From a virus, in the IMG/VR virus record IMGVR_UViG_3300032770_000009, positions 1 to 64,000 of that record: a DNA stretch of 64,000 nt. One strand, written 5' to 3'. The notes beneath the pieces were generated by a model. That model did no database searches, had not been told where the DNA came from, and was given only the letters and a program-made list of their open reading frames with translations. Position numbers and translations under genes: made by a program. This document shows, piece after piece, positions 45,277 through 63,720 of this stretch; position 1 is the first letter of the stretch, and each line of letters starts with the position of its first letter.

Positions 45277-45420
45277 CTAATACCACTGGTGACTATCATT
45301 GTTAGTGCAAACATGCTCTTGCAACATAGCATGTCCTCTTGTCAGATCACATGACCCGTCACATCGTGGACATTTTGCAGGACAAGGGTCTTTGCCTCTG
45401 TAAACTATATTAAGTCCCAT
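45277..45420 (-). CDS. Cys/His microprotein (CxxxCPxCxxxC...H...HxC...HxW family)
   Basis: MGLNIVYRGKDPCPAKCPRCDGSCDLTRGHAMLQEHVCTNNDSHQWY; SD AAGGAGG. Confidence 0.7.
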   Translation of the reverse strand: MGLNIVYRGKDPCPAKCPRCDGSCDLTRGHAMLQEHVCTNNDSHQWY

Positions 45421-45731: not shown

Positions 45732-45811
45732 TGGGCCGCCTAGGGATCGAACCTAGCATGTCAAAGACGGCAGGGTTACAGCCTGCTTTCCCACCTTGGG
45801 AATTCCGACCC
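45732..45811 (-). tRNA. tRNA-Tyr(GTA)
   Basis: Loop CT-GTA-AC; variable arm; atypical D arm. Confidence 0.82.
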
Positions 45812-45888
45812 AAAACCTAGGCAATCCGGAGAAAACCTAGGAGTAATCTTAGATGACGACGTTACCGCCGCCCTGAGTTGATATTTAA

Positions 45889-45927
45889 AGCCTACCAGAC
45901 CCAACGTCCGATGTCAAATCGGACATT
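45889..45927 (-). promoter_or_regulatory. Promoter with CGGACATT box
   Basis: TTGACA-N17-TAGGCT. Confidence 0.7.
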
Positions 45928-45942
45928 CAGGACAAACCGGGA

Positions 45943-46314
45943 TTAACCGTAAGCTGTACCAGCAGTGATAAGCAAGCCGAATTCATCAAGATAAATCTGA
46001 GAATTGGCCGAAGTAGCGTCTGGAGAACCAGCAGAATAAGACAAAGTAACATAGTAAGCACCAGTCTTAGTGTTTCCTGCTGAATCAACAACACTTACCT
46101 GCTGTACTTGTGTCAGTGTCGGTAACGCTATGGATGTTCCGTCAGTGTAAAAGAACTTAGCTCTGTTCTCGCCGTCAAGATAACCGGCAATATAAGCACC
46201 CGCGTGTGTTGTAGAAACACCGTTAGTGTAAGTAAAGCTCGATGCGTCAACGTTAGTAGCTCCGCCCCACGCAGGGTAGCCACCTAAATTGTAAACTGAT
46301 AAACCTGCTGACAT
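45943..46314 (-). CDS. Hypothetical protein, paralog of 43638-44213
   Basis: Shared motifs and shared upstream element. Confidence 0.6.
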   Translation of the reverse strand: MSAGLSVYNLGGYPAWGGATNVDASSFTYTNGVSTTHAGAYIAGYLDGENRAKFFYTDGTSIALPTLTQVQQVSVVDSAGNTKTGAYYVTLSYSAGSPDATSANSQIYLDEFGLLITAGTAYG

Positions 46315-46361
46315 ATTAGCAGCCTCTCATGAGAGAAATAATATTACAATGACAGTATACA

Positions 46362-46823
46362 CTAGGCTAGCAAGTAGTTCTCCGCTTGCTGTATATGAGA
46401 TCTTTGCAGTCCGTCAACATAATCAACAATTACCTGGTACCCGTTACTTTCGTACAAGTGATGCTGAAAGTCCCATTCGTCTTCTAGAGCTGCAAACTTG
46501 CGCCCATCAGCATATTTCTTTGCTGAGTAAGCCTTGTCTGCACCGACAGACGATGAAAACTTCCAAGGTTTCACCTGTATAAAGGGCAGTTCGGGCAATC
46601 CGACTTTTGGTGCTATATGTACTGGCGCTTGTGCACCCCACATAGTACACCATACAAGTTCAGAATCGGTTTTATCGGCTAGATCTAGCAGCCATGATCC
46701 GTGATTAGGATTCAAATGGACAGTAAAACCATTTATTTCGTATGTTACATGGTCTTTAGACGGACGGACGGGGTTAAGCACCCCGTCCACGTCTATCAGT
46801 ATCAAGTTACTTTTGATGGACAT
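46362..46823 (-). CDS. HAD-family phosphatase (RNA-repair-associated type)
   Basis: LIDVDGVLNP...ELVWCTMW...LGLPELP...ALEDE. Confidence 0.75.
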   Translation of the reverse strand: MSIKSNLILIDVDGVLNPVRPSKDHVTYEINGFTVHLNPNHGSWLLDLADKTDSELVWCTMWGAQAPVHIAPKVGLPELPFIQVKPWKFSSSVGADKAYSAKKYADGRKFAALEDEWDFQHHLYESNGYQVIVDYVDGLQRSHIQQAENYLLA

Positions 46824-47120
46824 AGTAGCCACCGTCAGCCCTGCGAGCACTCTTCGCCTTGCCACCGGAGTCTAGGAATTGCTGGTATTGTCTAGCAGTC
46901 ATGAATACTTCTCCAGAATGATCATGTCCCACATCGATAGGCTTACCGTGATTCTCAGCTTTGCCATTGCAGCCTTGCTTAATATGATCAATCTCTATAG
47001 GAAGACCACAGCATCCCCATGTTTTTCCAGACTTCTTCTTAAGACCGGCCGCCAAAGCCATTGCAGCCCTGAAAGCTGACTTGCTGATAGCCATTGTTTC
47101 CTCCTTGTTTGTTTGTGCTA

Positions 47121-47198
47121 TGGTCTAGATAGAGGGATTCGAACCCCCGTTATGCCTGACCCCAAATCAGGTGCCATACCAAGCTAGGCGATATCTAG
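47121..47198 (-). tRNA. tRNA-Pro(TGG), CCA encoded
   Basis: Loop TT-TGG-GG. Confidence 0.88.
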
Positions 47199-47201
47199 AA
47201 A

Positions 47202-47273
47202 CCGGGAGGTTCTTCCATTAAACTACCATACCCATGAATAGTGGATATGACCGGAGTCGAACCGGATTCCCCG
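47202..47273 (-). ncRNA. Free-standing circularly permuted tRNA-like element with no anticodon loop
   Basis: Order is T arm, looped acceptor, D arm; the two ends pair as an anticodon stem. Confidence 0.7.
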
Positions 47274-47275
47274 TG

Positions 47276-47348
47276 TGGACAGTAAGGGATTCGAACCCTT
47301 ATTCGCTTGCTTGCAAAGCAAGTGCCTTACCAGTCGTGCCAACCGCCC
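47276..47348 (-). tRNA. tRNA-Ala(TGC)
   Basis: Loop TT-TGC-AA; G3-U70 pair. Confidence 0.88.
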
Positions 47349-47728
47349 ATTGTGCCGCTTACGCGGCGGTACTACTAGAAAACCATGTCGATAAACGCAT
47401 CGAATTCTGCGTCTAGGATATCCTGCTGTGCTCTTTGCATTTCATAAGCAGCAGCACGGCGATTACCCATAGCCAGATCCATCTGTGCTCTTTGCTGAGC
47501 CATCTGAGCATCTTCCAGATCCATAATTTCATCGAACTCAATAAAATCCATTAGTCCTCCTAAAACTTGTTACCGTAGTCTGATGGCATTACAATCCAGT
47601 TTCCGCCATCCCAGTATCTTACTACACCATCCATGTCAACCCATTGCTCATACGTATAAGGGTTATCTGGCGGATCTTGTGTTCTTATTGATTTATTCAC
47701 GTTGGGCGACTGGGACTTGAACCCAGGA

Positions 47729-47956
47729 CTATGAAGCAGTAGACATCTTTACGATATAAATTCCCATAGCAACAGCAGCAAAGAAAGATACTGTGCCCAA
47801 AGCTGGGTACTTCTTTATAAGAGCATGGGAACCTGCTATTGCAAGATAAGTCCCTGTAACCATAACAACAGCAGCTTGTTCCTCTGGTGTCATTGCTGAT
47901 ACTACATTTTCATAGTCTTGCATACTAGAGAAGCCCATAAATTCTGTTTCATTCAT
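47729..47956 (-). CDS. Small membrane protein with two predicted helices, inside the insertion
   Basis: Two hydrophobic segments; SD GGAG. Confidence 0.55.
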   Translation of the reverse strand: MNETEFMGFSSMQDYENVVSAMTPEEQAAVVMVTGTYLAIAGSHALIKKYPALGTVSFFAAVAMGIYIVKMSTAS

Positions 47957-47987
47957 TTAATTCTCCGAATCTGTAAAATTGTTAAAG

Positions 47988-48061
47988 TTGGGATAGAAGG
48001 AATTGAACCTTCTCAAAGTGTTTATAAGACACTTTCCGTCAAACCGTTCGGACCTACCCCA
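47988..48061 (-). tRNA. tRNA-Ile(TAT)
   Basis: AGTGT-CT-TAT-AA-ACACT arm; T loop TTCAATT. Confidence 0.82.
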
Positions 48062-48456
48062 ATGCTAAGAATCTCGTAATCCTCAGCCCAGTTGATATTG
48101 GGAGAAGCTTTGAAAGGATTTTTGACTCTTAAACGCATACTACCTGCTGGTGCGTCATCAACTGGAATCCAGTATACCTTGTTTAAGTCAGGCGAGTACA
48201 CGGCAAACAAATCAGCTTCACCTTTGTAACCCTTGTGGACATTTGTGAAAGGACTAATGCTAACAGTGTTGAATACAACACAGCCGTTATCAATTCTGCC
48301 AGTTTTGACTTGGATTCGTGTGAAGTTATTGTTTTCTTCAACAACCATATCATATCGCTGGTTGTCTCCAAACGGCAGCAGAACTGTTTTTCCCTGCTTG
48401 ATTAGCTCGGCTAAGACAACAGCTTCACTTATTTCTCCGACTGCTTTGCTATTCAC
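48022..48456 (-). CDS. PD-(D/E)xK homing-type endonuclease
   Basis: GEISE...PFGDNQRYDMV...RIQVKTG...ADLFAVY motif pattern. Confidence 0.85.
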   Translation of the reverse strand: MNSKAVGEISEAVVLAELIKQGKTVLLPFGDNQRYDMVVEENNNFTRIQVKTGRIDNGCVVFNTVSISPFTNVHKGYKGEADLFAVYSPDLNKVYWIPVDDAPAGSMRLRVKNPFKASPNINWAEDYEILSIGVGPNGLTESVL

Positions 48457-48822
48457 TAATCTCCTTGTGCTGCTCTAACCGACTGAACTACCGCCCAATG
48501 ATTACTAAGATTCTTTTTCTGCTTTCTCGACAAGAATCTTAGCAGCGGCAAGCGCGGCCAATTCTGTCTTAGTAAGAGTCTTAGGATCTCTCTTTTCAAG
48601 TTCTTTAATCACCTTAAGAGCCCTTGCAAGAGCATCTTCCACTACAGTCCACCTACTTTCCATCCACGGTTAGGTACAGTATCTACAGGTTCACTAACCC
48701 ACAATACATCCCATAATACAGCAGGTGCATGCTTTAAAGTTACCCTGTCACCTATTTTAACATCTTTATCAACCCAGCATGTAAGATGGGTGTCGTGTGC
48801 TTTTAACTTGACTTGTATCATG

Positions 48823-48895
48823 TGAGTCCCGTGGGATTTGAACCCACAACTCCCAACTTAAAAGGATGGTACTCTGCCAATTGAGTTAGAGACTC
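48823..48895 (-). tRNA. tRNA-Lys(TTT)
   Basis: Loop CT-TTT-AA. Confidence 0.88.
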
Positions 48896-49218
48896 ATTTT
48901 CCCTGAGCCGTACTGATTTTTCCAACCTCGAATAGCCAACTGCTCAAGGTTATCGGCTTTCGATTTCTGAGTATGATGAACTGCGCATAGAAGTTGGCAC
49001 TTTTCAAGTTCAGCTAGAAATCTTACTTTAGCTATAGACCACATTTTGTTGACAGGAACCTCTTTGTAAACCCAGTCTATGTGGTCTATTTGCAAGTTTT
49101 CCGTTGTTTCACATATCGCACACACTCCACCTAGCAGTTTTTTAGCAAGAGCCATTCGCTCCGCATAGCGTCTTTGCATGTATGTATTCATGTAATTGTT
49201 ATAGTCTTTAGAAGGCAT
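48886..49218 (-). CDS. HNH endonuclease
   Basis: LGGVCAIC...LQIDHID...ELEKCQLLCAVHHTQK. Confidence 0.85.
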   Translation of the reverse strand: MPSKDYNNYMNTYMQRRYAERMALAKKLLGGVCAICETTENLQIDHIDWVYKEVPVNKMWSIAKVRFLAELEKCQLLCAVHHTQKSKADNLEQLAIRGWKNQYGSGKMSL

Positions 49219-49483
49219 ATTTAGTTGTTTTTCTTTTTTGGCTGCATATGTTCTGGAGCAGGTTTCTTACACAAAGAACATCTAAGGACGCCTGTCACTC
49301 TGTCTTTAATATAAAAATGTTTACCATTCTGGCAATTACTGTTACCCATACTACTTCACTTTTTTCCAAATGTCAACTAGAAGATTAACGCAGGCTATAA
49401 TAGCTATTCCTGTACCTAGTCCGCTACCAAAAAATACCTCAAATCCGTGTTCCCAACCCATCTGTCCCTCCTAATATAGAAAG

Positions 49484-49556
49484 TACCCTGAGAGGGATTC
49501 GAACCCCCGACCTTATGCTTAGAAGACATTAGCTCTATCCACTGAGCTATCAGGGC
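49484..49556 (-). tRNA. tRNA-Arg(TCT)
   Basis: Loop CT-TCT-AA. Confidence 0.9.
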
Positions 49557-49769
49557 TTGGTTTAGCAACGACACTATTAAGCCGCCGTATGCTAAACGGT
49601 ATACGCATGTTTACAGGCTGCAGTCCTAATATCTAGAATTTTGCTGTCAGAACCTCAAGTCCAATAAGTCATGCCTGACTTTATGCTCCGCACCGTCAAG
49701 GACTCAAGACGGTGCAACCTTCTATATACAGAAGACCTTTCATCCGGATTTCATATCTGTACGGGAGCG

Positions 49770-49842
49770 CGCCCTGACCTGGACTCGAACCAGGGACCGT
49801 CACTTTAGGAAAGTGTTATTCTATCCTCTGAACTACCAGGGC
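49770..49842 (-). tRNA. tRNA-Arg(CCT)
   Basis: Loop TT-CCT-AA. Confidence 0.88.
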
Positions 49843-50070
49843 GTAAAACTATTTTTCCTTCTGCTCTTTCTCTAGCTTAACTACTTCCCTTGTACGACGA
49901 AGCACTTCAGCCTTAAGCTTTTTAACCATAGCATAACTATCCGGGTTTCCGCCATTGCGGTCTTTGATTAGTTGTATAGCCTCAGCCAAATCGGATTCAG
50001 CATCCGCTAGAAGCATCTTAGCCAAACCTAGAGTATCAGCCATTCTTTCCTCCATCTCTTGTTTTCTATG

Positions 50071-50144
50071 TTGGGGAAGAGGGACTTGAACCCTCGGTCT
50101 TTTCCTTATCAGAGAAACGATTTCACCAGCTAATCTACTCCCCA
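50071..50144 (-). tRNA. tRNA-Ile(GAT)
   Basis: Loop CT-GAT-AA. Confidence 0.88.
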
Positions 50145-50153
50145 TTGTTACTG

Positions 50154-50215
50154 TGGAGTCAAGAGATTTGAACTCTCCACCCATAGTGGCCAATTACGGG
50201 TTACACCATTACCCC
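50154..50215 (-). ncRNA. tRNA-like element lacking a D arm
   Basis: Acceptor GGGGTAA/TGACTCC, T loop TTCAAAT, CCCGTA/TATGGG arm, no D stem. Confidence 0.55.
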
Positions 50216-50217
50216 AG

Positions 50218-50289
50218 TACACCCAGAGGGAGTCGAACCCCCATTCCTAGATCCGTAGTCTAGTGCCCTGTCCATTGAACGATGGGTGC
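50218..50289 (-). tRNA. tRNA-Arg(ACG)
   Basis: Loop CT-ACG-GA. Confidence 0.9.
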
Positions 50290-50370
50290 ATGTACTAAAT
50301 TTGACGAATGAGACTTTACTTATCAGTGTATTCTATGATTCTCTTGTACGGGCTTTAGTACGTGCCCTTG

Positions 50371-50442
50371 GGCGAACATCGAGAATTGAACTCGAATATT
50401 TGGTTCCACAGACCAATGTTCTACCATTGAACTATATCCGCC
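50371..50442 (-). tRNA. tRNA-His(GTG)
   Basis: Loop CT-GTG-GA; G-1:C73 pair. Confidence 0.9.
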
Positions 50443-50568
50443 ATGGGTCACGCAATTTTATGCTTCTTGCGTGGAACAGCTTCTGTATTTACAGCTACAG
50501 ATCAGCAGGAGCCCTTTTGTTCCGACATCTTGTAAAGCGCGCCCGGAACGGGTAATGCTCATACCTAG

Positions 50569-50639
50569 CAGGGCGACAGGGACTCGAACCCCAAACTGCG
50601 GTTTTGGAGACCGCTGTTTTACCATTAAACTATCTCCCC
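50569..50639 (-). tRNA. tRNA-Trp(CCA)
   Basis: Loop CT-CCA-AA. Confidence 0.88.
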
Positions 50640-50783
50640 AAGTGAGAAACGCACTTACCTATGCGCAGAATTAACGCCGCCTTCCCCATCCGGCATTATT
50701 GCGTTAAGCATAACCACCCATGCGATAGCCGCCGATATCGCCCTAGAACCCTCAGCGCATCTCTCTTTGTTGTTATGTCTAAT

Positions 50784-50812
50784 ACCCTACCACACGTCCG
50801 GCCCTTTGTCAA
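50784..50812 (-). promoter_or_regulatory. Housekeeping-sigma promoter
   Basis: TTGACA-N17-TAGGGT. Confidence 0.68.
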
Positions 50813-51541
50813 ATCAAGTGACTGAGACAAAAATCCGCGTATCGTCACCCTTCGGGCGAACCACCGTACCCTGGGGCAAATCGGACATTCGGGACGTAAC
50901 TAGTTTTCCAGACGTCCCTCGAAGATCCATCTCATGCATGTGATAGCGTTTGCAGAAACATTCATCCCAGTCAGATCCACCGGGGAGGTAAGCCTTGCAC
51001 TCAGGATCGTGCTTAGCATTAAAAGCATTAACCGTTTTGTCAGCCTCTTGTTTATCAAGAGTAGTCATAATACACTGATGGTAACTATCCCACGGAACTT
51101 CAGCGCATACTACGTAGCAGATCACTTAAGGAATGTTTCTATCTTGCCGCGCTTCATGAATTTTTCCATGTCAACTTCACCAAGTACGTTGGCTTCTATA
51201 AGTTCAACCTTGACATCGTATTTTCTTGGCTCATCGAACCCCGCGTAAACATATGTCTGCACAGCCATTTGCAAACCACCATAACGCACTCTTGGCTTGC
51301 TTGCCCATCTAAACCTAGGGTTTATCTCTGTTCTCGTAACCCTGAACAGATGACGCTTATTGTTATCGTACATTAATCCTCCTGATTGAGCCATTCAAAG
51401 TCAGCTTCGCTAAGCTGGCCGCCAGTAGACGGTGATACATATATTTTAGGATGGCGCGGCCTGTACTGACAACGATACACCCATATACCAAACACTTCAG
51501 CATGTACCATAGGTACACCACAGCATTCAAATGTCATTACG

Positions 51542-51612
51542 CTTCCCCCCAAAGATTCGAACTTCGATTCATGGTTCCAAAGACCACTGTCCTGCCATTA
51601 GACGAAGGGGAA
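51542..51612 (-). tRNA. tRNA-Gln(TTG)
   Basis: Loop CT-TTG-GA. Confidence 0.88.
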
Positions 51613-51617
51613 TAGAG

Positions 51618-51690
51618 CTTCCGCCCCAAGATTCGAACTTGGAACCACATGGTTCAGAGCCATGTACTCTGCCAGTTGAGCTAGACGGAA
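51618..51690 (-). tRNA. tRNA-Gln(CTG)
   Basis: Loop CT-CTG-AA. Confidence 0.88.
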
Positions 51691-52381
51691 ATATGCCGCT
51701 TACGCGGCTGTTGTATTTAACTCGATAATACCATTTATGTCAAGTGCTTCAGTTTGAACAGCTAGCATCTGACTATTTTTCATGTAGCGCTTCTGCCTGT
51801 CCTGAGCTTCCTGGCGTTTACGTGCCTTTTCTGCTTGCATAACACCTTTGTTAGGACCATATTTACGTGGCGGTCCTTGCGGGCCTGTGAATTTATACCA
51901 CTTATCCAAAACTCTTCTCCCACCATTCGGCGAATACAGGACCGTTGAACTTCAGAACATGGCGAAGCTTGTTACGCTTGCGGTGACCCTCAGCATTATA
52001 ACGCATATGCGACGGCTTCTTGCGCTTATTACCTGTTTTGCTATGTGCCATCATACCCCCTTAAGCTTCGCTGTGGTCGTACGTAACTCCCTTATTAGCA
52101 CATTTAACACAAATATGTAGATTAGCTTGTGCGTCACTCATAAGTTTGTTAAATCTCATTTTATATTCGCAGTGCTTGCACCTGTAAACGTATGTCACTT
52201 TCCCTCCAGCCACAACTTCCAGAAATCGTCGAGAAGTTGCTTCTTTATGTCTTCTGCCATTTCTTCCGCTAGATTCCATTCCTCTATAGGAATGCTATGT
52301 TTCACACGAAATTCTTCGGCATGGCGTTTAGCATCTTCTAGAGCTTTAGCCTCAGCTTTAGCATCCATTTTCCTCCTGTCG

Positions 52382-52454
52382 AGCCAGATATCGGATTTGA
52401 ACCGATGACCGCATTCTTACCATGAATGTGCTCTACCGACTGAGCTAATCCGGC
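52382..52454 (-). tRNA. tRNA-Thr(GGT)
   Basis: Loop AT-GGT-AA. Confidence 0.9.
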
Positions 52455-52545
52455 TTGTGGCGTCAGTAGAAATGCTAGTTTAAAGCGCTACTATATCTAG
52501 TATTTCTTGGGGCTGCTGTCGGCCGCACCAGTTATTCCCCTTTAG

Positions 52546-52619
52546 AGCCACCTAACGGATTCGAACCGTTGACCTGCTCATTACAAGTGAGCTGCTCTGG
52601 CCATCTGAGCTAAGGGGGC
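52546..52619 (-). tRNA. tRNA-Thr(TGT)
   Basis: Loop CT-TGT-AA. Confidence 0.92.
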
Positions 52620-52749
52620 GTATTTCTAATTGTCCTTACGGTACAAGTAAGTTGTAGTACGACAAGCAGGGCATTCTTTCCTGATAACTTTGTCAGTGTA
52701 CTTAAGTTCTGATATTTCTTCGCAAAGAAGACATTTGTATTTATTCACG

Positions 52750-52822
52750 CTCTCACATCAGGACTCGAACCTGAAACCTATCGGTTAACAGCCGAACGCT
52801 CTGCCAATTGAGCTATGCGAGA
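52750..52822 (-). tRNA. tRNA-Asn(GTT)
   Basis: Loop CT-GTT-AA. Confidence 0.92.
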
Positions 52823-53195: not shown

Positions 53196-53660
53196 CTAAA
53201 AGTCGATCCATGGTGTGCCCACAGCGAAAGTAGGTATACCGAGGGACTGCCACATTCTCAGAACTTGCGGTCTGTCGTCTATAGCGAACTGAATATCGTA
53301 TTTCGGTTCTATATGATTACGGTAAATTTCTTCCTTCACTATGTAGTCTTTCCTGTAATCAGGCAGACCGTTAGCCAGCCAGTCAGGACGCATAAACAGC
53401 TCATTGTCGTAAGGCGTGAAAACATTCTTACCGAGCCATTCCTTTGTGTCGTCACGGCTTCTCTCCGGTCTTCCTGATACAAAGACGCAGGTAACGTTAT
53501 CTGGTTCTGAAGGAGACAGAATAAGACTAGTTACGACATGGATGACATGAGGATTAGGTTTGTCAAGCATAACTTTATCGTAATCGAGATGTCCCCTGAT
53601 GCCTTCGTGGTCCGCCACTGTGCCATCTATATCACATATGAATGCTTTTATTTTATTCAT
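53196..53660 (-). CDS. HAD 3'-phosphatase (T4 polynucleotide kinase phosphatase domain-like)
   Basis: CDIDGTVA, VSGR, LFMR, RKDYIVKEEIY, IDDRPQV. Confidence 0.88.
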   Translation of the reverse strand: MNKIKAFICDIDGTVADHEGIRGHLDYDKVMLDKPNPHVIHVVTSLILSPSEPDNVTCVFVSGRPERSRDDTKEWLGKNVFTPYDNELFMRPDWLANGLPDYRKDYIVKEEIYRNHIEPKYDIQFAIDDRPQVLRMWQSLGIPTFAVGTPWIDF

Positions 53661-54225
53661 TACCCTCCAAGCAACAGCCGTCGCATCCGTGAACAGATAC
53701 GTCTCTTTTAATTGTCTTGTTGAATGCTACATCATCAGGGTCAGGGTGACCAACACCGTGAGGACACAGCCTTTCCATCTTCTTAGCATCTGCTCTCCAA
53801 TTCTGCGGCCATGCAGTCATATGATGATCGGAAGGGTTATGAATGCAGCAGTTACGTCCCTGGCACATTTTACTGTTATGCACTCTAAGAGTCTGGCCGC
53901 CGACAAGGGTAACATCTTCCATGTCAAGTATCTTCTCTGCTGAATCCCAGAAAGCATCCCATTCGTACTCTTCCATAGACCTGCCGACATGCCATGTGTA
54001 GGTGGCGTTGTTAATGTCAGGAGAACAGAAGTAGCACGGGTAAGCTTCAAATGACTTTTTCCTGGATTTCATCAGTGAAGCAGCGTGCTTGTGTGCTGTC
54101 AGGAAATCAGAGTGCTTAACCTTGGTGCCGCATGTTGAATCTCTGCCGTAGTATCTTCCCGCTGCAAGGTGTACTTTTATTTCCTTATCGGTAGGATAGA
54201 TTAGTTCCAGCGGAAGGTCTATCAT
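53653..54225 (-). CDS. Cys/His-rich two-domain hypothetical protein
   Basis: CGTK...YPCYFC...WHVG and CCIHNPSDHHM...ERLCPHGVGHPDPD...HGCDGCC. Confidence 0.6.
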   Translation of the reverse strand: MIDLPLELIYPTDKEIKVHLAAGRYYGRDSTCGTKVKHSDFLTAHKHAASLMKSRKKSFEAYPCYFCSPDINNATYTWHVGRSMEEYEWDAFWDSAEKILDMEDVTLVGGQTLRVHNSKMCQGRNCCIHNPSDHHMTAWPQNWRADAKKMERLCPHGVGHPDPDDVAFNKTIKRDVSVHGCDGCCLEGNE

Positions 54226-55195: not shown

Positions 55196-55636
55196 ATGGA
55201 ATTTGAGAACGGAACAAGGGTATCGTTCGAAGTAACAGGAACAGTCATCAGTGACGAGTCGTTCCTAGACAAGATGGAAGAAATCTACGGGCCTGTAGCT
55301 AAGAGTATGGACATAACGATGTCAGGACGTGACTTCACCAACATACTTCTTGACAACGGAGTTGTTACCCGGATTGATACAACAGAAGACGAACTGGGTA
55401 TAGCAGTTAGCAGGGTAAAGCCTCGCTACTGGCCTCCTAAGAGAGATGATGTATGGAGAGACGACCATGACGGATCTTGGTATGTAACCGAAATGGATTT
55501 CGGTAACCGTAAGGGAACACGTATGAAGCAGTTTACAGGAGACGGAGAAGTTGTCCGCAGTTCTGTTGTTTTCTTGCAGGAAAACGTGCACCCTTACCTG
55601 CTTATAAGAGACGGAGAGTACCTAGGTGTTAGTTAA
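55196..55636 (+). CDS. Hypothetical protein (WPP-x-x-DVW family)
   Basis: First gene after the plus-strand promoter; RYWPPKRDDVWRD...LLIRDG. Confidence 0.65.
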   Translation: MEFENGTRVSFEVTGTVISDESFLDKMEEIYGPVAKSMDITMSGRDFTNILLDNGVVTRIDTTEDELGIAVSRVKPRYWPPKRDDVWRDDHDGSWYVTEMDFGNRKGTRMKQFTGDGEVVRSSVVFLQENVHPYLLIRDGEYLGVS

Positions 55637-57475
55637 AGGCAAGCCGCTTAAGCTTACATATGCTGGATCTGTAATATCTGTCAACTCCGACAGAAAAGCA
55701 ACAATAGCCAATATAACCGTTATGCTGAACGGAACTTACTACGTGGCTACCGGAAGTAGCTGGAGAGACAGTGGAGACCCTTACGACAAGACTAAGGGAG
55801 ATCTTATCGCATTCAGCCGGGCTGTTGAAGAACTAAGAGACGTTCTGAAAGAAGAAGTAAGGAAACTAGGAGACTAATGGAGACATTCAACTTCACCAAA
55901 GCCGGTTACGCATATCACTTAGGGAATTTCCAGTTCTACTGGATTTCCAAGGACACCTACTATGAAGTAACACATTACGGCAGGACTGGAATTATATGTC
56001 AGGTGCATCCGTACAAAGGAGAAGAAGGCACTCTAGGGCAAGACAGTAAAATGTTCACCGTAATAGCTCACGACTATCCCGGTGTAGGAAAACTTGAGCA
56101 GATGGTGAAAGGCGCGGATCTTCTGGAATACATAGATTCAATTCGCATGGGAAGAGGAATGTAAAATGGCAATGGCGGCTCTAATTGCGGCGAACGTGGT
56201 AAATCAGTCGGCGGCAACTACAGCCGCTAAAGTCAGATCAAGATACGCTAAGTTCGATACTAGTCTTCTGTACACTGTTAACGACGATTACTCCACCCAC
56301 CCGTATCCTACTAACGAGGAACTGGGGATACAAGATGTTACTCGTACTACTCTAGGTCAGCCGGTACTTAAGGAGGACAAGGATGTCTACGGTCTTCCTA
56401 AAGCTGAGACAAGGTGGGAAGTATTCAAGAAGATGTGGATTCCCAACTTCAAGTACAAGGGCAGGAGACGTAAATGATAGAAATATCAGAAGGTCTAGTC
56501 AAGGTAAATTACGTAGAAGCATTACACGAAACAGACGAGTTTGTTGTCTACATGGTCAATACTGCTACTAAGAGACCTGAAGTCATAAGCTGGAATAGCT
56601 CTATTGTTACCCTTCTTCCTGCTGACAAAGACTGGGGCATGATTCGTCCCATGGACTACACGGTTATCCGGTTTCCTGAGAAATTTGGATATACATCAGT
56701 GTACCAAGAGGAGCGGTACTGCGTGTTCTTCATACAGTTCAAGACAGAGCACGGTACGATAGTATGGGAGAAGGATGACACAGGTAGTTAACAGCATAGG
56801 ATACGGAGACGGCTTCCAGTACAATTTATCATCTCCGGTGGTAGTGAACACCGGAGATACTATGCTGGTAAACGGCACTCCGTTGACATATGACGGACGT
56901 GGATGGAATTACGGTTATAACACGATTTCATCAGGATCAGCAAACGGAACATGGAATGAGGAAAATATGAATAACGTGGCAAATGTTTACGACAACCTTA
57001 TCTTTACAAGAAACTGGTGCTACGAGCCGTGGTCGGTTACCAATATCAAGACCGGCAAGGAAGTAGGTAAGGTCTACGAGGTTAAGAGAGGTAGTCACGT
57101 AGGACTGAACAACAACAGCAGTTTTTACAGTGTCCTGGCTGACGGAAAGATCACTTACCCTCTTCTTAGCTGGAATGCGCTTCTGGAGAAGCTTGGGGGA
57201 TAAGAATGCCATTCTGGCACGAATGGTAGTAAAATGATAGTAGTCACAACTACTATCACAGGAGCTTTAATGGCAACTATGTACTCACCAAGGCATTCAG
57301 CTAACTCAATGCCAAGGGTGCAGCCCTTTGCCGGGAACAACACCAGGAACTTACAGCCACAGCAGTTTGGTACCGGAACAAGGTCAAGCGGTAATGTCAA
57401 TACAGGATTCAATCCACTGACATATCAGGGCGGTGCTCACAGAGCAGGATCAGGCGGCATATTCAACATGTAAAT

Positions 57476-57497
57476 GAAAGGGACTTCGGTCCCTTTC
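57476..57497 (+). terminator. Intrinsic terminator
   Basis: gaaagggac-ttcg-gtccctttc, UUCG tetraloop. Confidence 0.7.
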
Positions 57498-57514
57498 AGT
57501 ATTTTAGGAGGAAA

Positions 57515-57667
57515 GTGGGACTTTACTGCATAGAGAAATGCCCTAAGTGCAGAAAGAACGTGTGTAAGTTCACCAGTAATCATGGTCACAACCTAAGTAA
57601 ATGGCAACACGAATGCAAGGGCTGCGGAGGAAAATGGGATGTCTCGTTTGTTCCGGGGAAAGACTAG
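57515..57667 (+). CDS. Cys/His microprotein
   Basis: MGLYCIEKCPKCRKNVCKFTSNHGHNLSKWQHECKGCGGKW...; SD AGGAGG. Confidence 0.65.
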   Translation: MGLYCIEKCPKCRKNVCKFTSNHGHNLSKWQHECKGCGGKWDVSFVPGKD

Positions 57668-57814
57668 AGTAAAACTTTCAGTAGTAGAAGATCACTGGCC
57701 GGAAATTCGTATAGTAGAAGATATACCTGTAGAAGGTATTACGCCGCAGGCTCTTATAATCCGCGTAGGGAGTGTCTTCACTTACGATTCAGATCCGAAG
57801 GCAAGAACAGGAAT

Positions 57815-58306
57815 ATGGGTAAATTACGATTCTGGCGACGGAGACAATCTCTACGGGCCGGTACTGATGGATTACGAAAGCTGGAAAAAAGTAAACAAGC
57901 ACGTAAAGAAGCGATGGAGGGACAGAACATGGCCAATCTACATCTGGTTCGACAAGATGACGGCGAAATTGTCCGCGTTGGACATACAGTTGAGATAAGC
58001 AAAGTCATAGAAATTACAGATATACTCAGCACCAATTCTTACAAAGGTAGTGCCTTTGTAAAAGGCGATGACGGAAAGCGCTATCTAGTAGGAACAGAAT
58101 GGGACTTCAAGTTCGCTACTCCTAAGACATGGCCTCCGAGACCTGGGGATGTATGGAAGACCAACGATGTTAAATACGCCGCTATAGCACGCGGTGACAT
58201 TATAGTGCTAGAACCAATGACAACCAATGACAGGAATGTCGTACTTCCTTCAGATTTCGGTTCGTTCCTCGCGCAGAACCCAATACTAGTCTACCGCGAA
58301 AGGTAA
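57815..58306 (+). CDS. Hypothetical protein (WPP-x-x-DVW family; true start probably later)
   Basis: TWPPRPGDVWKTND...LVYRER. Confidence 0.55.
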   Translation: MGKLRFWRRRQSLRAGTDGLRKLEKSKQARKEAMEGQNMANLHLVRQDDGEIVRVGHTVEISKVIEITDILSTNSYKGSAFVKGDDGKRYLVGTEWDFKFATPKTWPPRPGDVWKTNDVKYAAIARGDIIVLEPMTTNDRNVVLPSDFGSFLAQNPILVYRER

Positions 58307-58823
58307 GCTATGGACATCATAAAAGGAAGTAATGTAAAAGTTACCCTTAAAGGTATCGTGACGGAAGTAGTTCAGGGAGGATTTTGGATCAAGCACCCAG
58401 ATAGTCCTAACTCAAGTTTCATCTACACGGGTCATGGGGTCACTGTAGAAGACATGCCCCTAGAAAGCCCAGAGAGCCAATCTGGGAGGGTTTATAAGCT
58501 AGACGAGTCCGGGGCAGCAGTTAGGGCTTAAAGTCGATCAGCGTGGCTGTACGGGCCTTACAGGAGGTACTATGAACAAGGAAGAGATCGTAGATGAGAT
58601 ACATAAAAAATTTTATTCCGAAACTAGCCTTGAGCCGCTTCGCCAGGCATATGATTTCGGTTACGAAGAAGGCTACCGTGACGGCTTCAAAGATGGTCAG
58701 TACGAAGCGGATCACGGATACCGGGAATGAAATAGACCAGGTGTGGTCGGACGCTGAGATAGGATACTATCTAAGGCAGATAGCTGACAAGATAGACCCT
58801 AATCCTCAGTTCAAGGAGATTTA

Positions 58824-59778
58824 ATGAAATGCGGTTTCAAATGCCCCTCATGCGGTGGAAATTGCAGTAAGGACTCGGTATCCGGTCTGCACTACTGTAA
58901 AACTCACGGCTTGTGGCCTAAGATGAAGTAGGCGGCAAATGCGAGCTAATCTTATAAAACTTATGATACCGAAACAGTGCCCGGAAGAATGCGGCACATG
59001 TCATCATCAGTGCATACAAGACAAAGGTCATAATGTAAAAAAGAAAAAACATATATGCTTCTACGGCCATGAGTGGCAGTAATGGAAAAATTCTGCATGA
59101 TGCCGTGTCCTTACTGTGATAGCTGCTGTCAGTTGCTGTGGCTGCACATACCAATGGTTGTAGAGCATGTATGCGCTAGAAGGCACAGGTACACAAACGA
59201 TGACGTGCTCAAGCCAGTGTGAAAAATGCGAAGGTATATGCACTCAGCTCAGCAAACATGAAATGCACAAGTGCCCTGTAGGACACAAATGGAAAAACGA
59301 ATGGTGGGAAGAATAATTTCCAAGATAGAGGACTAAATTTGCGTAGGTCCATACTGAAAACGCCGTGCTCTAAATGCGGATGCTGGCATGACATAAGAGG
59401 CGCAAGACCTCACTGTGAAAATTGCAACTGCAATCATGTAGGAGCGGGCAGCCGTGTAAACGGTAAATGCCCGTGCTGCGGATACTGATGCCAAGGCTTA
59501 AACTACCGCCTGGAATACCCGACCAGTGCGAAGAAACAAACAGATGCCCTGTATGCGGCGATGACTGTATAGAATACAAAGGGCACAGACCGAAAATAAA
59601 ACATCTGTGCATTAAATGGCATGAATGGGAGTAGAAAATGGCAAGAAAACCGTGTCCTGAAAAATGCCCTGTATGCGGAGGACAATGCCGGTGGACAGCG
59701 GGACATGTGATACTGGACAACACATGGCACCAGTGCTATGTCAACGTTACGCATCCATGGCCTAAAACAGAAGACTAA
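58824..59778 (+). CDS. Tandem run of Cys/His microprotein genes (58824-58931, 58963-59082, 59082-59222, 59200-59316, 59488-59634, 59638-59778)
   Basis: Manually translated and below the ORF-track size cutoff; overlapping start/stop codons; shared Cys/His spacing. Confidence 0.7.
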
Positions 59779-60162
59779 ATAAGAAGGGAGGATGAAATGA
59801 GAAAATACGTGATGCTTTACCTGTTCGGGGTTGTCATGTTCTACGTGTTGCAGTCAGTAAGCCCCGCACTTGGTTTCATGACTATGGCTGCTTCATTTAG
59901 TCTTCCCTTCCTTAAATACTCACTGCGGGCAGCCAGAATAGAAGACGAAAGATGCAGGAGTGAAAATCTCAGGGGAATACGCTGATGGTTGACTGCAACT
60001 ACAAGTGGACTAATACTGACCCCAACGCAGAAAGAGGACCCGACGGCAAGAAACTGCACCCTTTTCACATATGCACTAACTTGGCTCACGCTTTGGGAAC
60101 GCACAAATGCAAATGCGGTGTAATCAAAGTTAAAGACAAAAGAAATTGAAAAAGGAGGAGAC

Positions 60163-60558
60163 ATGGATTATTTCCACAAAGGCGATCTTGTTACGGTCAC
60201 TATCAGGAACTTTAAGGTTATGGAAGACGACAGTCTGAGAGGTGTTCACGACGGCATAGCATATTCAACAAGAGCAGGAAGAATATCTGACGAAATTTTC
60301 CTGTCACAGTACAGCGGAGAAATCTCAGCTGTCAAGGAAACACGTGCCAGCGATTTCCGTCCGAAGGTAGGAGATATCTATAAGGCAGACGGCAAGATCT
60401 GGTATGTCAGGAAATACAACGGTTACAGCGGCACAGTAGTAATCGAAGACGGAGAAGGAAACTCTTACTCTGACGACAAGTACAACTTGAGCAACGAACT
60501 GGAAAGTTTCGGAAGGAAAATGCCCAGGCTACTGGTAAGAGACGGCAAGGAGGTTTAA
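60163..60558 (+). CDS. Hypothetical protein (WPP-x-x-DVW family)
   Basis: FRPKVGDIYKADGKIWY...LLVRDG; SD AAGGAGG. Confidence 0.65.
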   Translation: MDYFHKGDLVTVTIRNFKVMEDDSLRGVHDGIAYSTRAGRISDEIFLSQYSGEISAVKETRASDFRPKVGDIYKADGKIWYVRKYNGYSGTVVIEDGEGNSYSDDKYNLSNELESFGRKMPRLLVRDGKEV

Positions 60559-61429
60559 TGAGCAGTCACAGATGCCAGGAAAAATGCTGCAAATGCGATT
60601 ATCAGTGCTGTCTTCTGAAAGACCACGCAGGGTACGAGTTCATAAAGAAGCACTATTGCTCAGTGCATTTCTACATGGTAGATCCAAGACCGTCTGAGTA
60701 AAAGGAAACATGTCGAAACTAAGCAGAGAACAGCAGGCATCAAAAAACGGGGGATGGTATTCCTGCACTTCCAAATGCCCTAAATGCGGCAGGGAATGCA
60801 GCACGTTCACAGGAAGAACTCCCTCCGCTGAACATGAAAAGCACATGTACTCCTCTATGCCAGCGCACTCTAAAATAAGAGGCGGCGACAATCACAAGTG
60901 CACTAGCTGCTGGGTGTACTGGGCATAGTCTAGCAAAGGAAAAATACAATGGGTATGAGAAAAAACAACAACGGCCGGTGCCCTTCACGATGTGACAGAG
61001 GGAAACTTACCGACAGATGCACAAACCAGTGCAATCTACAGATCAACCATCACCGTGATTTCTATTACGATGACGATGATAACAAGATTCCGCAGACACC
61101 AAAGAAAATGCACGACTGCGGCAAGCACTAATGGCTAATATTGACCCAGACTGCACTTATCAGCAGTGCGGGCACAGAAGAGGCAGCACTACAGGACCGC
61201 ACTGTATTGACGAAAAATGCCCCAACTGGGTTAACAAATGCGAGAAACACCGTACAGACGGCAAGAATGGAAGTACAATGCCATGGAGATCAAGGAAGCC
61301 TGACAAGTGAGTAACGTATGCGGGATACAGTGCCCTTACTGCGAAGGGCACTGTAAAATTAAACACAAATACAAGCCGCAGCATCATATATGTGATACGA
61401 ATGATTTCCATACATGGACAACTAGTTAG
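60558..61429 (+). CDS. Second run of Cys/His microprotein genes (60558-60701, 60710-60928, 60949-61131, 61131-61310, 61307-61429)
   Basis: Manual translation; coupled start/stop codons. Confidence 0.65.
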
Positions 61430-61437
61430 GAGCAGCA

Positions 61438-61968
61438 GTGACTGACGTGGTACTTTGCGAAAACAAATGGGTTTCGCTTATAGAAAGAACACTAGACGGA
61501 CATGACCCTTACGTGTACTCCCATGAAACCAGATGCCAGGGAAGAATAGTCGCGCTGCTTCCTTACAGGGTTAAAGTTGTCAAAGGCATCTGGGAAAACA
61601 CAGAATACAGGGAATATCTAGTTAAAAGCGAGATGACCCCGTGCTGGACCCCGGAAAGGATATACAGTGCTATCACAGGAGGATACGAAGGCGGTGACAT
61701 AGCCGATGACGCTGTTAAGGAAATGCTAGAAGAAACCGGCTATGTTATAGACAAAGACGAACTAATAAGTCTGGGGACAAGTTACGCCAGCAAAAGCTCT
61801 GACACCGTATACAGCCTGTTTACCGTAGATCTTACCGACAAGCAACCGGGAGATGCTAACGGAGACGGAACCGAAGAAACACAGCAGTCAGTATGGATCA
61901 GCGGCGAGGAAATAAAAATGATACAAGACCCGCAAGTATCCGTTATGTACATCCGGTTGCAGCACTGA
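61438..61968 (+). CDS. Nudix hydrolase
   Basis: Nudix box GGYEGGDIADDAVKEMLEETGY. Confidence 0.85.
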   Translation: MTDVVLCENKWVSLIERTLDGHDPYVYSHETRCQGRIVALLPYRVKVVKGIWENTEYREYLVKSEMTPCWTPERIYSAITGGYEGGDIADDAVKEMLEETGYVIDKDELISLGTSYASKSSDTVYSLFTVDLTDKQPGDANGDGTEETQQSVWISGEEIKMIQDPQVSVMYIRLQH

Positions 61969-61983
61969 AATAAAGGAGGAACA

Positions 61984-62115
61984 ATGGGACTTATAATGTG
62001 CGATGCGAAATGCCCGTCATGCGGAGACAAATGCCAGTGGACAAAATCATGGCACGCCAGATATCCGGGTGACGGTCATGTATGCAAGAGATACAAGCAT
62101 TTGTGGCCGAGATAG
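61984..62115 (+). CDS. Cys/His microprotein
   Basis: MGLIMCDAKCPSCGDKCQWTKSWHARYPGDGHVCKRYKHLWPR; SD AAGGAGG. Confidence 0.7.
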   Translation: MGLIMCDAKCPSCGDKCQWTKSWHARYPGDGHVCKRYKHLWPR

Positions 62116-63720
62116 GAAAATCAGATGACTGAAGAAATACAGCAAGCCTACCGTGATCTAGACGCGGCGCTCACACGTATCAAAAACACCAAGCCGGGAA
62201 AAACAACTAGCGGACTGGAAGCACTGTACGGCAACGCATACTCCAGACTAGTACGACTCGGTGAGCGGCCTAAACTAAGAGGAAAATACAGGATTCAGTA
62301 AATGGCTGAAGAAATGTTCAGCAGCGAAGAAATCCGTACAATAATGTATGAAGTTAACGCTCCAGGAATGCTGAAAGTAAAAGACAGATACGGGATGCCG
62401 GTACTAATACCCGCCCAGTCAGTCACAGAAATATTCCCTAACTGGGAAGGTAAAATACACTACAAAACAGCAGGCGGCTCATACTACACCGGCCCCTACA
62501 GGCATACCTACGAAATACGAAACGAACTGGAACGAGTAGCAACACTAATAGCTTAAGACTCCAGCAAGGAAAAACAATGACACTTAAACCAGGAAACAGA
62601 ATAGGCATCCCCAAATGTACCTGTCAGTGGACAGACAGAGGCGACTACGAAGGGCAAGGCGGAAAAGGGCCAAAAGATTCTGATATGGAAAGAAGAGAGT
62701 GGATGGGCAAAACATACTATCGTCTGATAACTAGTCATGACTGCCCAGTACACAGTTAGGAAAATTCATGAAAATAAAACAGCGCTTCAGTGAACTGATG
62801 ACGGTATTAATGGTCATAGGAGACCAGATTATGGGCTTGAGGCAGGATATAACAGAACTTAGGAAAGAGCTGGCGGAATACAACGGCAGAGAAGCTAAAG
62901 ATATTACGATGCGCTGGGAGTAAACAGGCTCGCCGCCACCTAAATAGAAAGAAGGAACATGGAACAACTAAAACCAGTAGTACAAACTAATGATGTAAAT
63001 TTTGGATACAAGCTGAAAAGGCTGCTGGAACTAAACCCAGGTAAGCTAATCAGAAACACTAGTCTATCAACAGCGCTATCTTGTGCTACAAGTCAAATCA
63101 CAGGAGCTATAACACATCTAAATAGAAGACTAGACACGGACGTGCATTTCGTAGCTCAGGAAATACCAGGAGCACCAAGAGGACTGTACTACTATGGCCC
63201 GAAAATTCAGCAGGATGAACTACTAAAGATGCTGGATACATATACAGGTGTAGATGACCTAGAGATTCCCTGGTAATGTGCTACAACCAAATTTAAGCTA
63301 AAAACCAGCCGATTATCACTTATGGTAGTCGGTTTTGGTGTTTCTAAGGCAAAAGCAAGTGTTTAACGTATGTAAAAATCAAACACTTTTCCTTCCACTG
63401 GCTACTGAGAGTGACAATGATAGTAGTCTGAATGTGCTACATATAATGCCATACCACCCTTATGTACTGTCTAACTGAGTCTAAAATCCCTGCGTCTCTA
63501 AAAATTTTACGACCCTATCTACTGTTTTACTGTAAAATTGCTAAAACATTCAACTCAGATCTGGTCTCCCCCACTCTCAGAAACGGACATTAAGGATGGG
63601 GGGGTACATAACGGACATTAACTGTAACGGGATGATAACGAAATGGATGTGTGACTTGACAATGCAATACTTGTATGAATGTGAATGTGTGCAGAGTATG
63701 TATGCATGTCTATGTCGTCA

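Follow-up and report, generated by a model that had tools for sequence, protein, structure and literature searches.

A single genome of an uncultured soil/wetland phage was found to carry 12 divergent Cys/His genes, whose products of 35–72 residues form one paralogous family in which the Cys and His positions are fixed and the remaining sequence is free to vary. We tentatively propose that these paralogs form a panel of metal-held mini-domain binders for host takeover or counter-defence, a reading we regard as possible rather than probable. The window analyzed here is the 64,000-nucleotide stretch at positions 1 to 64,000 of IMG/VR record IMGVR_UViG_3300032770_000009. The whole genome is that of a 116,568-bp myovirus with 33 tRNAs, and its capsid protein is 72% identical to the counterpart in Streptomyces phage BRock. 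Eleven copies are located in the only plus-strand island of the genome, and one is located in the tRNA array. The copies and nearby elements are listed below.

57475..57498, plus: terminator-like hairpin (stem of 10 pairs followed by a T-rich tail) directly upstream of the first copy; consensus scan
57515..57667, plus: family copy, 50 aa; GTG start; SD AGGAGG; orthologs P0005 (26/46) and P0006 (29/49)
58824..58931, plus: family copy, 35 aa; SD AGGAG; overlaps the upstream ORF at TAATG
58963..59082, plus: family copy, 39 aa (47 aa from a start at 58939); no SD found
59082..59222, plus: family copy, 46 aa; TAATG coupling to the preceding stop; C-terminal H-x-Y
59200..59316, plus: family copy, 38 aa (49 aa from a start at 59167); 23-nt overlap with the previous copy in a different frame
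59488..59634, plus: family copy, 48 aa (55 aa from 59467); x5 between Cys 1 and 2
59638..59778, plus: family copy, 46 aa; SD GGAG; AlphaFold2 mean pLDDT 82.3
60558..60701, plus: family copy, 47 aa; SD AGGAGG; TAATG overlap with ORF 60163-60558; C-terminal H-x-Y
60710..60928, plus: family copy, 72 aa; SD AAGGA; extended N-terminus; about 20 residues inserted ahead of H-x-C
60949..61131, plus: 60-aa Cys/His-rich ORF; by eye C-x3-C, C-x3-C-x5-H and H-x-C-x2-H
61307..61429, plus: family copy, 40 aa; start codon GTG, which overlaps the stop codon of ORF 61131-61310 (GTGA)
61984..62115, plus: family copy, 43 aa, the final one in the cluster; SD AGGAGG
63307..63334, plus: terminator-like hairpin, likely the end of the plus-strand island
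45277..45420, minus: family copy, 47 aa; SD AGGAGG; ortholog P0018 (25/39)

The twelve genes and their island

All 12 ORFs had been reported by the first-pass annotation, and each was found at its position and translated as claimed; the example peptide that it quoted lies within the 59638 copy. The pattern it described as common to the family, C-x3-C-P-x-C-x3-C ... H-x-C ... H-x-W, was confirmed in all 12 ORFs, with some variation. We searched stop-to-stop segments in six frames of the whole 116.6-kb genome for the strict core C-x3-C-x2-C-x3-C. This gave 11 matches, 10 of which were family copies and one an unrelated segment at 19443; 100 mononucleotide shuffles gave a mean of 0.08 and a maximum of 1. 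A fuller regular expression matched nine times in the genome and never in the shuffles. The copies at 57515 and 59488 escape the strict core through x4 and x5 spacings, respectively. In the 57515 copy, the variant x4 lies ahead of the fourth Cys and the C-terminus reads C-x-C-GG-K-W.

A profile HMM built from the 12 copies, a check that had been suggested, recovered exactly these 12 in the genome (E ≤ 1.1e-10; next segment, 0.34). When each copy was left out in turn, 11 of 12 still outranked all non-family segments (E 9e-12 to 6e-3). The 57515 copy failed (rank 15, E 0.1); its orthologs P0005 and P0006 are canonical. Mean pairwise identity was 30%, and 15% when ligand columns were removed, in agreement with the view that the ligands are fixed and the rest differs. 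That the family had mostly been missed by the ORF track also fits, as 11 of 12 genes are shorter than the 60-codon cut-off and only the 72-aa copy would be listed at a 60-aa minimum. The ORF at 60949..61131 looks by eye like a degenerate member, but its membership is not supported: the probability by hhalign against A2 was 3%, and the family HMM misses it.

The starts were said to have SD sites or coupled start/stop codons. Eight of 12 indeed have an SD, and the other four are TAATG/TGATG-coupled or overlap the preceding ORF; the 59488 copy, for example, is coupled through TGATG to a Cys-rich ORF at 59339-59488. An SD core of at least four bases precedes 8/12 family starts versus 70/337 (21%) of all ATG/GTG in the island. 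On other metagenome contigs, orthologs were present for five different paralogs, with best scores of 133–263; the paralog–paralog background reached 103 at most (median 48). P0002 is a near-identical ortholog of the 59082 copy (44/46), and the 59488 copy has the orthologs P0003 (40/46) and L223:237-413 (32/46). L223, a related 1.2-kb metagenome contig, holds six family ORFs in a different order; its ORF at 407-553 and P0007 (17/36) are the closest outside relatives of the 61984 copy. In one ortholog pair, the 59488 copy and its L223 counterpart, pN was 0.18 and pS 0.78 (synonymous changes, 20.6/26.5 sites; non-synonymous, 21.4/117.5). This pair is under purifying rather than diversifying selection, so that at this evolutionary depth there is no sign of a fast arms race.

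These sequence comparisons support the 12 ORFs as genuine, tightly packed genes. The opposite reading, that they are untranslated and the motif is a chance or DNA-level repeat, could appeal to the copies below usual gene-calling lengths, which are the majority, and to the four without SD. It is close to refuted and we give it almost no weight, because the motif is far more frequent than chance, the protein level is conserved though synonymous sites are saturated, and the starts are SD-led or coupled. Moreover, predicted proteins with the motif occur in unrelated bacteria, one archaeal MAG and other phages, and these outside homologs share the first Cys, which was absent from the search pattern.

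The expansion is confined to the phage lineage of the window. The family was absent from 15/15 relatives with capsid identity of 62–80%, 10 of which are at least 90% complete; as a positive control, the same search recovered 12/12 copies in the window's own genome. BRock has no such small-gene plus-strand island beside its polynucleotide kinase gene. A PHROG search of the nine longer island ORFs gave a weak Nudix match only. A consensus scan of the region detected 14 terminator-like hairpins, with 8.4 ± 2.8 expected there. The promoter scan found 17 sites versus 18.1 expected, which is the chance level, and the proposed early expression is thus a guess from position. The 45277 copy is flanked by tRNA-Phe (45197-45269) and tRNA-Leu (45442-45525) in the minus-strand tRNA array. 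This placement between two tRNA genes is the sole link behind the suggestion of a protein parallel to the RNA array, which we regard as a figure of speech.

Predicted fold, probable metal binding and proposed function

We aligned 37 family sequences from phages, bacteria and one archaeal MAG. The order C, C, C, C, H, C was invariant, and P, H and W were at least 90% conserved; seven ligand positions (C, C, C, C, H, C, H) thus vary little or not at all. An eighth ligand, a His six residues past the fourth Cys, was present in at least 70% of the sequences and in 8/12 window copies. It is missing or shifted in four of 12, and a strict two-zinc site therefore cannot apply to every copy.

AlphaFold2 models of the 59638 and 45277 copies (mean pLDDT 82.3 and 77.4; domain blocks of the latter, 81–88) predicted a compact, zinc-ribbon-like fold with short beta-hairpins. 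Structural neighbours of the models were weak and mostly zinc ribbons, with VIA-align Z of 2.0–2.5 (best values 2.5 and 2.4), far below significance, and Foldseek E values no lower than 3 in PDB and 0.43 in BFVD. They included an RNA polymerase I subunit, TFS4, Kti11 and topoisomerase/PriA zinc modules. Each protein would in essence consist of one compact mini-domain of zinc-ribbon-like form, with bound metal keeping it together. From the ligand set (C-x3-C-P-x-C-x3-C, the usual His six residues later, H-x-C and the final His of H-x-W), two zinc sites per domain are plausible and most likely. We infer that one site would be made up of the CPxC knuckle and the C ... H of the last hairpin, and the other of Cys 1 and 4 and the two middle His.

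Small phage proteins are a main source of host-takeover and anti-defence factors and are systematically under-annotated. Outside the ligands, the copies have diverged freely, most of all in the loop from the fourth Cys to H-x-C, which measures 8–14 residues. The pI ranges from 6.3 to 9.2 and the net charge from −1 to +6, with +5 or +6 in four of the 12 copies, +1 in three and −1 to 0 in five. The phage would thereby hold a panel of twelve different surfaces upon one scaffold, each paralog being maintained by purifying selection in related phages. During infection, the paralogs may act as small intracellular binders that serve host takeover or counter-defence, each with its own macromolecular target in the host (or phage).

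Three other readings accept the genes as real. The metal may be a [4Fe-4S] cluster instead of zinc, held by C-x2-C-x3-C plus a distal Cys or by C-x3-C-x2-C, and the proteins would then be redox-sensitive regulators like the small WhiB-like proteins known from actinobacteria and their phages. Both spacings are found in [4Fe-4S] sites too. That of C1-C2-C3 is the radical-SAM spacing, and that of C2-C3-C4 is the C-x2-C-x3-C of the molybdopterin-oxidoreductase Fe4S4 domain, present in 11/12 copies (x4 in the 57515 copy); the phage clade is also related to Streptomyces phages. Also in favour, the profile of that domain (Molybdop_Fe4S4, PF04879) matched P0019, alone in hmmscan, at 20.5 bits (E 4.6e-4), below the gathering score of 22.7, and P0007 showed a faint Fer4_12 match. 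Against a cluster, 0/12 window copies matched an Fe-S family at E ≤ 1. The WhiB-like spacing is not found, the distance to the fifth Cys (10–16 residues) is below that of the oxidoreductase domain, and the conserved His and CPxCG knuckle are typical of zinc sites, which makes a cluster quite improbable. Small nucleic-acid-binding zinc fingers that each recognise a site of their own, serving as phage transcription factors or structural DNA/RNA binders, have a better though still low chance. Their precedent is the proposal of Iyer et al. for the zinc-ribbon expansion of phage G (PMC7824862, section 3.4.3). The basic copies, with net charge of +5 or +6, may bind nucleic acids; several loops are Lys-rich, one copy lies within the tRNA array, and zinc ribbons of transcription factors and polymerases are among the weak structural neighbours. 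Against this, the five neutral or acidic copies and the three at only +1 fit poorly, no DNA-binding family matched at threshold, and no repeated DNA motif fit as a set of binding sites was found in the island, the repeats detected there being the coding Cys-knuckle itself.

Exported disulfide-rich peptides or modified-peptide precursors (bacteriocin-like, RiPP-like) would likewise be small, Cys-rich and variable, and one homolog, P0011, has a signal-peptide-like N-terminus by eye. In the 12 phage copies, however, only 2–13 residues precede the first Cys, too few to accommodate a signal or leader peptide. The PHROG search of the nine longer island ORFs found no maturase, radical-SAM enzyme or exporter, and a folded domain is favoured by the invariant His and Trp and by the compact fold predicted with confidence; we consider this reading very unlikely. 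If the paralogs are intracellular binders, as we prefer, they would serve as probes for host targets and as a natural scaffold of very small size; binding of nucleic acids or Fe-S clusters would instead make them a new regulator class. The family offers a defined, testable case: its scaffold is about 35 residues long, has seven or eight fixed ligands and comes in twelve natural surface variants in one genome, and the orthologs indicate that each variant is retained.

Relation to known families and occurrence of the domain

The domain is without a family name in Pfam, PHROGs or NCBIfam. A match to a characterised family with one shared function had been named as evidence against the panel, and none was found in Pfam, PHROG, NCBIfam or PDB. 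Among the 12 copies and 16 homologs, no Pfam zinc-ribbon profile reached its gathering score, and 7/12 window copies gave no row whatever in Pfam hmmscan at E ≤ 1. The best sub-threshold row was Zn_Ribbon_TF for P0006 (19.8 bits; cut-off 29), and the 57515 copy gave Zn_ribbon_Dof at 18.7 bits (26.6) and Zn_ribbon_PaaD at 17.4 bits (27). FAM221 (PF14753) was missing from the hmmscan lists of the same 28 sequences at E ≤ 1, and gave no match at E ≤ 10 in a six-frame search of the window's own genome. The Lar restriction-alleviation profile TIGR03655 (cut-off 39.6 bits) matched only P0019, at 13.5 bits and through the N-terminal knuckle alone. The family resembles zinc ribbons (TFIIB-type PF08271, Dof PF02701, PaaD PF23451, PADR1 PF08063) in having a CPxC knuckle followed by short beta-hairpins, and differs from that superfamily in its extra conserved ligands, namely the first and fourth Cys and two His.

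Phage expansions of tiny zinc proteins are already in print: section 3.4.3 of Iyer et al. 2021 (PMC7824862) describes a lineage-specific zinc-ribbon expansion of about 35 copies in Bacillus phage G, proposed there as transcription factors or structural nucleic-acid binders. As in that account, one very small Cys-based, probably metal-binding domain has been multiplied into many divergent paralogs in one genome, with 12 copies here and none in 15 relatives. Differences lie in the ligand pattern, which here is C4 plus H, H-x-C and H-x-W with a single CPxC knuckle, and in the type of phage, a jumbo phage with a genome of nearly 500 kb in the case of phage G and a BRock-like myovirus of 116 kb here. 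Since the general phenomenon was published before, the family is only moderately surprising.

One-domain C(P)XCG zinc-finger micro-proteins of less than 70 aa, many per genome, are described for Haloferax volcanii in PMC11241148 and PMC10716476. As far as those descriptions go, the phage proteins are likewise stand-alone, with one predicted zinc-binding domain, a CPxCG knuckle and similar size (35–50 aa in 11 of 12, 72 aa in one). Unlike the Haloferax proteins, which are cellular and not one paralogous family, the present family is viral and paralogous, and it has a single C-P-x-C and a His-based second half (H-x-C ... H-x-W).

Outside the window's genome, the domain is sparse in bacteria, one archaeal MAG and other phages, with 1–3 copies per genome, the cellular genomes included; in one bacterial family it occurred in 1/61 genomes only. 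When 50,697 phage records were searched by tblastn with two members, P0010 and the 45277 copy, nothing significant emerged, only rows at E 0.6–0.7 in other phages, and this search thus detected no homology to the phage G expansion. A broader form of the binder reading, somewhat unlikely in our judgement, is that the C4-H-HC-H mini-domain represents a previously undescribed binder scaffold, stabilised by metal and shared across domains of life. Some phage lineages would then have amplified it into panels, with each paralog neutralising a different host defence or regulatory protein, and the single copies in bacteria and one archaeal MAG would be captured or ancestral. If so, the panels would be a natural counterpart of engineered mini-binder libraries. 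The neighbourhoods of the cellular homologs are unrelated and uninformative. Among these homologs, the signal-peptide-like N-terminus that P0011 displays by eye is a poor fit with a cytoplasmic zinc thiolate domain.

Membership and maintenance of the microprotein family

We are highly confident that the Cys/His microproteins of this phage form a real and old family whose members are individually maintained, that they consist of a tiny Cys/His domain with a confidently predicted compact fold, and that they were amplified in this phage lineage alone. The copies are named by their start coordinates, and the features concerned are as follows.

57515 to 62115, plus strand: eleven copies of the family
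45277 to 45420, minus strand: the twelfth copy
about 54.6 to 63.3 kb, plus strand: block of small genes (the island) containing the eleven copies
53196 to 53660: polynucleotide-kinase-like gene flanking the island

All twelve ORFs reported by the first-pass annotation were present, with the translations given there. A six-frame search of stop-to-stop segments across the complete genome gave 11 occurrences of the strict core C-x3-C-x2-C-x3-C, against a mean of 0.08 in shuffled sequences (n = 100). Ten of these occurrences were family copies, and the remaining one, at 19443, was unrelated. A fuller expression including H-x-C and H-x-[WYF] gave nine matches versus 0. An HMM built from the twelve copies recovered all of them at E values of 1.7e-18 to 1.1e-10, the next segment being at E 0.34. 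When each copy was left out in turn, 11 of the 12 outranked all 2,439 non-family segments, the exception being the 57515 copy (E 0.1). This copy is linked to the family because its clear orthologs among the database homologs, P0005 (26/46 identical) and P0006 (29/49), have the canonical motif.

Four other Cys/His-rich plus-strand ORFs are interleaved with the copies (59339-59488, 59985-60149, 60949-61131 and 61131-61310; 49–60 aa, with coupled starts and stops). Their membership was unsupported by HMM and profile comparison.

Of the 12 starts, 8 were preceded by a Shine-Dalgarno (SD) core of four bases or more, which in four cases was the full AGGAGG, compared with 70/337 for all ATG and GTG codons of the island. 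The remaining four starts lie in the packed stretch 58939-59634 and overlap the preceding stop codon (TAATG, TGATG) or the preceding ORF, in agreement with the SD sites or coupled starts proposed for these genes.

The contig L223, a 1,216-bp metagenome sequence from a related phage, contains six family ORFs, several of them overlapping. It also encodes orthologs of two non-family ORFs of the window, the small membrane ORF 59797-59985 and ORF 59985-60149, and the latter looks real because of this ortholog (L223 835-993). Gene order on L223 differs from that in the window, indicating that the array was rearranged between relatives. Between the 59488 copy and its L223 ortholog (48 codons), 20.6 of 26.5 synonymous sites and 21.4 of 117.5 non-synonymous sites were changed (pS 0.78, pN 0.18). 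Next to these counts, the alternative that the ORFs are non-coding is barely conceivable.

Orthologs of single paralogs were also found among the predicted proteins of public assemblies: P0002 corresponds to the 59082 copy (44/46), P0003 to the 59488 copy (40/46), and P0018 to the 45277 copy (25/39). The ortholog alignments scored 133–263, whereas paralog pairs in the window reached no more than 103 (median 48). As the orthologs score above this paralog background, the paralogs must have split before these phages did, each being kept since. P0005 and P0009 come from contigs of about 32 kb, and P0018 from a contig of 19.7 kb.

Domain anatomy, predicted fold and possible function

We aligned 37 sequences, comprising 11 window copies, 11 database proteins, four L223 ORFs, one sequence from another phage, and 10 cellular loci. 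No variation was seen at six positions: all four Cys in C-x3-C-P-x-C-x3-C, together with both ligands in H-x-C. At least 90% of the sequences kept the Pro, as well as His and Trp in H-x-W. A His six residues past the fourth Cys was shared by at least 70% of the sequences and, within the window, by 8 of the 12 copies. Between the fourth Cys and H-x-C lies an unalignable loop of 8–14 residues. Mean identity among the window paralogs was 30%, falling to 15% when the ligand columns were left out. The window copies have 2–13 residues ahead of the first Cys, a pI of 6.3 to 9.2, and a net charge of −1 to +6.

AlphaFold2 predicted compact models with short hairpins for the 59638 copy (23 sequences; mean pLDDT 82.3) and the 45277 copy (37 sequences; mean pLDDT 77.4, with domain blocks at 81–88 and the N-terminal tail at 51). 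In a putative arrangement of two sites, one would be formed by the CPxC knuckle plus the final Cys and final His, the other by the two middle His plus the first and fourth Cys. We infer this pairing from the ligand order and the hairpin positions, and not from model coordinates.

The first-pass annotation had named a match to a characterized family with one shared function as evidence against its reading; no such match was found at threshold in Pfam, PHROG, NCBIfam, or PDB. Neither the 12 copies nor 16–20 homologs reached threshold with any model of Pfam, PHROG, or NCBIfam; their top rows were zinc-ribbon families, well under the cut-offs. Kinship with the FAM221 domain was unsupported in this genome. 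When two family alignments (A2 and A3) were used as profiles against the solved structures of PDB, no match had an E value lower than 0.39. Fold searches of PDB (Foldseek, VIA-align wide) and of BFVD yielded nothing significant for either model, the weak rows being zinc ribbons, and the best score in the ESM Atlas, 0.79, was to clusters without a name. The homolog P0010 matched phrog_20343, a family of unknown function, in its C-terminal half only (E 1.7e-6). No earlier description of the C4-H-HC-H motif was found in the literature, in which motifs are not searchable as text. The C4-H-HC-H domain, which is without a family assignment, is presented here as probably new.

The proposal that the proteins are a panel of binders for host takeover or counter-defence is our tentative reading, one that may well prove wrong. 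Zinc would be the metal, bound in two sites, and the working parts would be the variable loop and surface; the island would be expressed early. A different role, that of nucleic-acid-binding factors, was proposed in PMC7824862 for the zinc-ribbon expansion of Bacillus phage G. We consider this role unlikely for the present family. One homolog came near the Fe4S4 domain of molybdopterin oxidoreductases (20.5 bits vs 22.7); Fe-S proteins in place of zinc proteins are an improbable explanation. Exported or modified peptides are a still more remote alternative to the binders that we tentatively prefer.

Distribution in phages and cellular genomes

Among 1.84 billion representative proteins, a profile of the family had 19 matches at E ≤ 0.001, comprising the window's own protein, one C2H2 zinc-finger false positive, and 17 motif-bearing proteins. 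P0010, P0004, and P0011, the last from an Auribacterota MAG, have two or three tandem domains. By eye, P0011 has a signal-peptide-like N-terminus, and P0004 has a long C-terminal tail rich in Pro, Ala, and Gly.

We also scanned nucleotide sequences with a degenerate DNA pattern. The resulting counts are undercounts, because the pattern catches just 4 of the 12 window copies. The scan of IMG/VR gave 17 loci, of which one was real (L014, a single copy in a 120.7-kb phage), and P0018 and the 57515 copy as queries found no new IMG/VR loci. The genome scan gave at least 120 loci; among the matches listed, 14 passed the HMM, and the first Cys, which is absent from the pattern, was at the right spacing in 11 of these 14. 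The cellular loci among the matches listed came from Planctomycetota, Nitrospirota, Auribacterota, Gammaproteobacteria, Anaerolineae, Gemmatimonadales, and a haloarchaeal MAG. In the bacterial family of one cellular carrier, 1 of 61 genomes searched had a match, the carrier itself. The neighbourhoods in Stieleria, a Nitrospirota MAG, an Auribacterota MAG, a Salinigranum MAG, and Rhodanobacter had no common neighbour and no prophage signal. This sparse spread over phages, bacteria, and one archaeal MAG is new.

Expansion of the family, as proposed by the first-pass annotation, held for the window phage with its 12 copies and did not extend to the other genomes counted, which had 1, 1, 1, 1, and 3 domains (five cellular genomes) and one copy (the L014 phage). 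A zinc-ribbon expansion of roughly 35 copies in Bacillus phage G is already published (PMC7824862) and is a known phenomenon of the same kind; small proteins of phages are the subject of a review (PMC11323111). The new element is a panel of 12 copies in a phage of medium size.

A tblastn search with two members gave no significant match in 50,697 phage records. Gene 2 of Gordonia phage ScarletRaider (L226 772-2178; a 468-aa hypothetical protein) has a repeated C-x4-G-H-x-G-x-H resembling the middle of the cellular members, at a tblastn E of only 0.7.

Phage genome and setting of the island

The source genome is a 116,568-bp IMG/VR record, complete by CheckV, and its first 64 kb make up the window. 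The products of this genome include a tail sheath, a baseplate hub, a portal, a large terminase, and a major capsid protein. The last of these shares 72% identity with its counterpart in Streptomyces phage BRock (genus Borockvirus) and has more than 598 relatives in IMG/VR. The stretch was contained in one DNA sequencing run only, labelled wetland metagenome, which may be its source; no RNA run containing it was listed. With megablast and blastn, no nucleotide match to the region was found in 50,697 phage records.

With few exceptions the long ORFs lie on the minus strand, and the island is the single plus-strand block. In 15 phage records with 62–80% capsid identity, including BRock, ten of them at least 90% complete, no family member was detected at E ≤ 0.01 (0/15), and the same search of the window's own genome found 12/12 copies. 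The polynucleotide-kinase-like gene was conserved in 5/5 relatives tested, a gene at the island's opposite end was present in 0/5, and in BRock the kinase gene is inside a continuous minus-strand replication block. Therefore, the island and its array are an accessory module of a sub-lineage. Three relatives identified by a Nudix gene, searched as whole records, had no family member, and the 131-aa neighbour ORF had no IMG/VR relative. A promoter scan was at chance level, and a search of the island for regulatory repeats gave none.

All 33 tRNA genes of the genome lie on the minus strand, from 34,977 to 52,822. Among them, ARAGORN called a tRNA with the anticodon TTA, which reads the TAA stop codon (41018-41090, minus strand). 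TAA is the stop codon of 4 of the 12 microprotein genes, and read-through would not fuse neighbouring copies, which are in other frames.

At the left edge of the island, a 190-aa Cys/His-rich ORF (53653-54225, minus strand) adjoins the kinase-like gene; its sole match was a faint one to phrog_15216 (E 0.0055). The plus-strand ORFs 57639-57998 and 57815-58306 have about 180 nt in common, read in different frames, and neither has a PHROG match; one of them, or its start, is probably not real. ORFs 55196-55636 and 57815-58306 (plus strand) have a common W-P-P-(K/R)-x-x-D-V-W stretch (BLASTP E 2e-4 over 15 residues; DNA repeat D10), and ORF 60163-60558 resembles this pair by eye only, without support from BLASTP.
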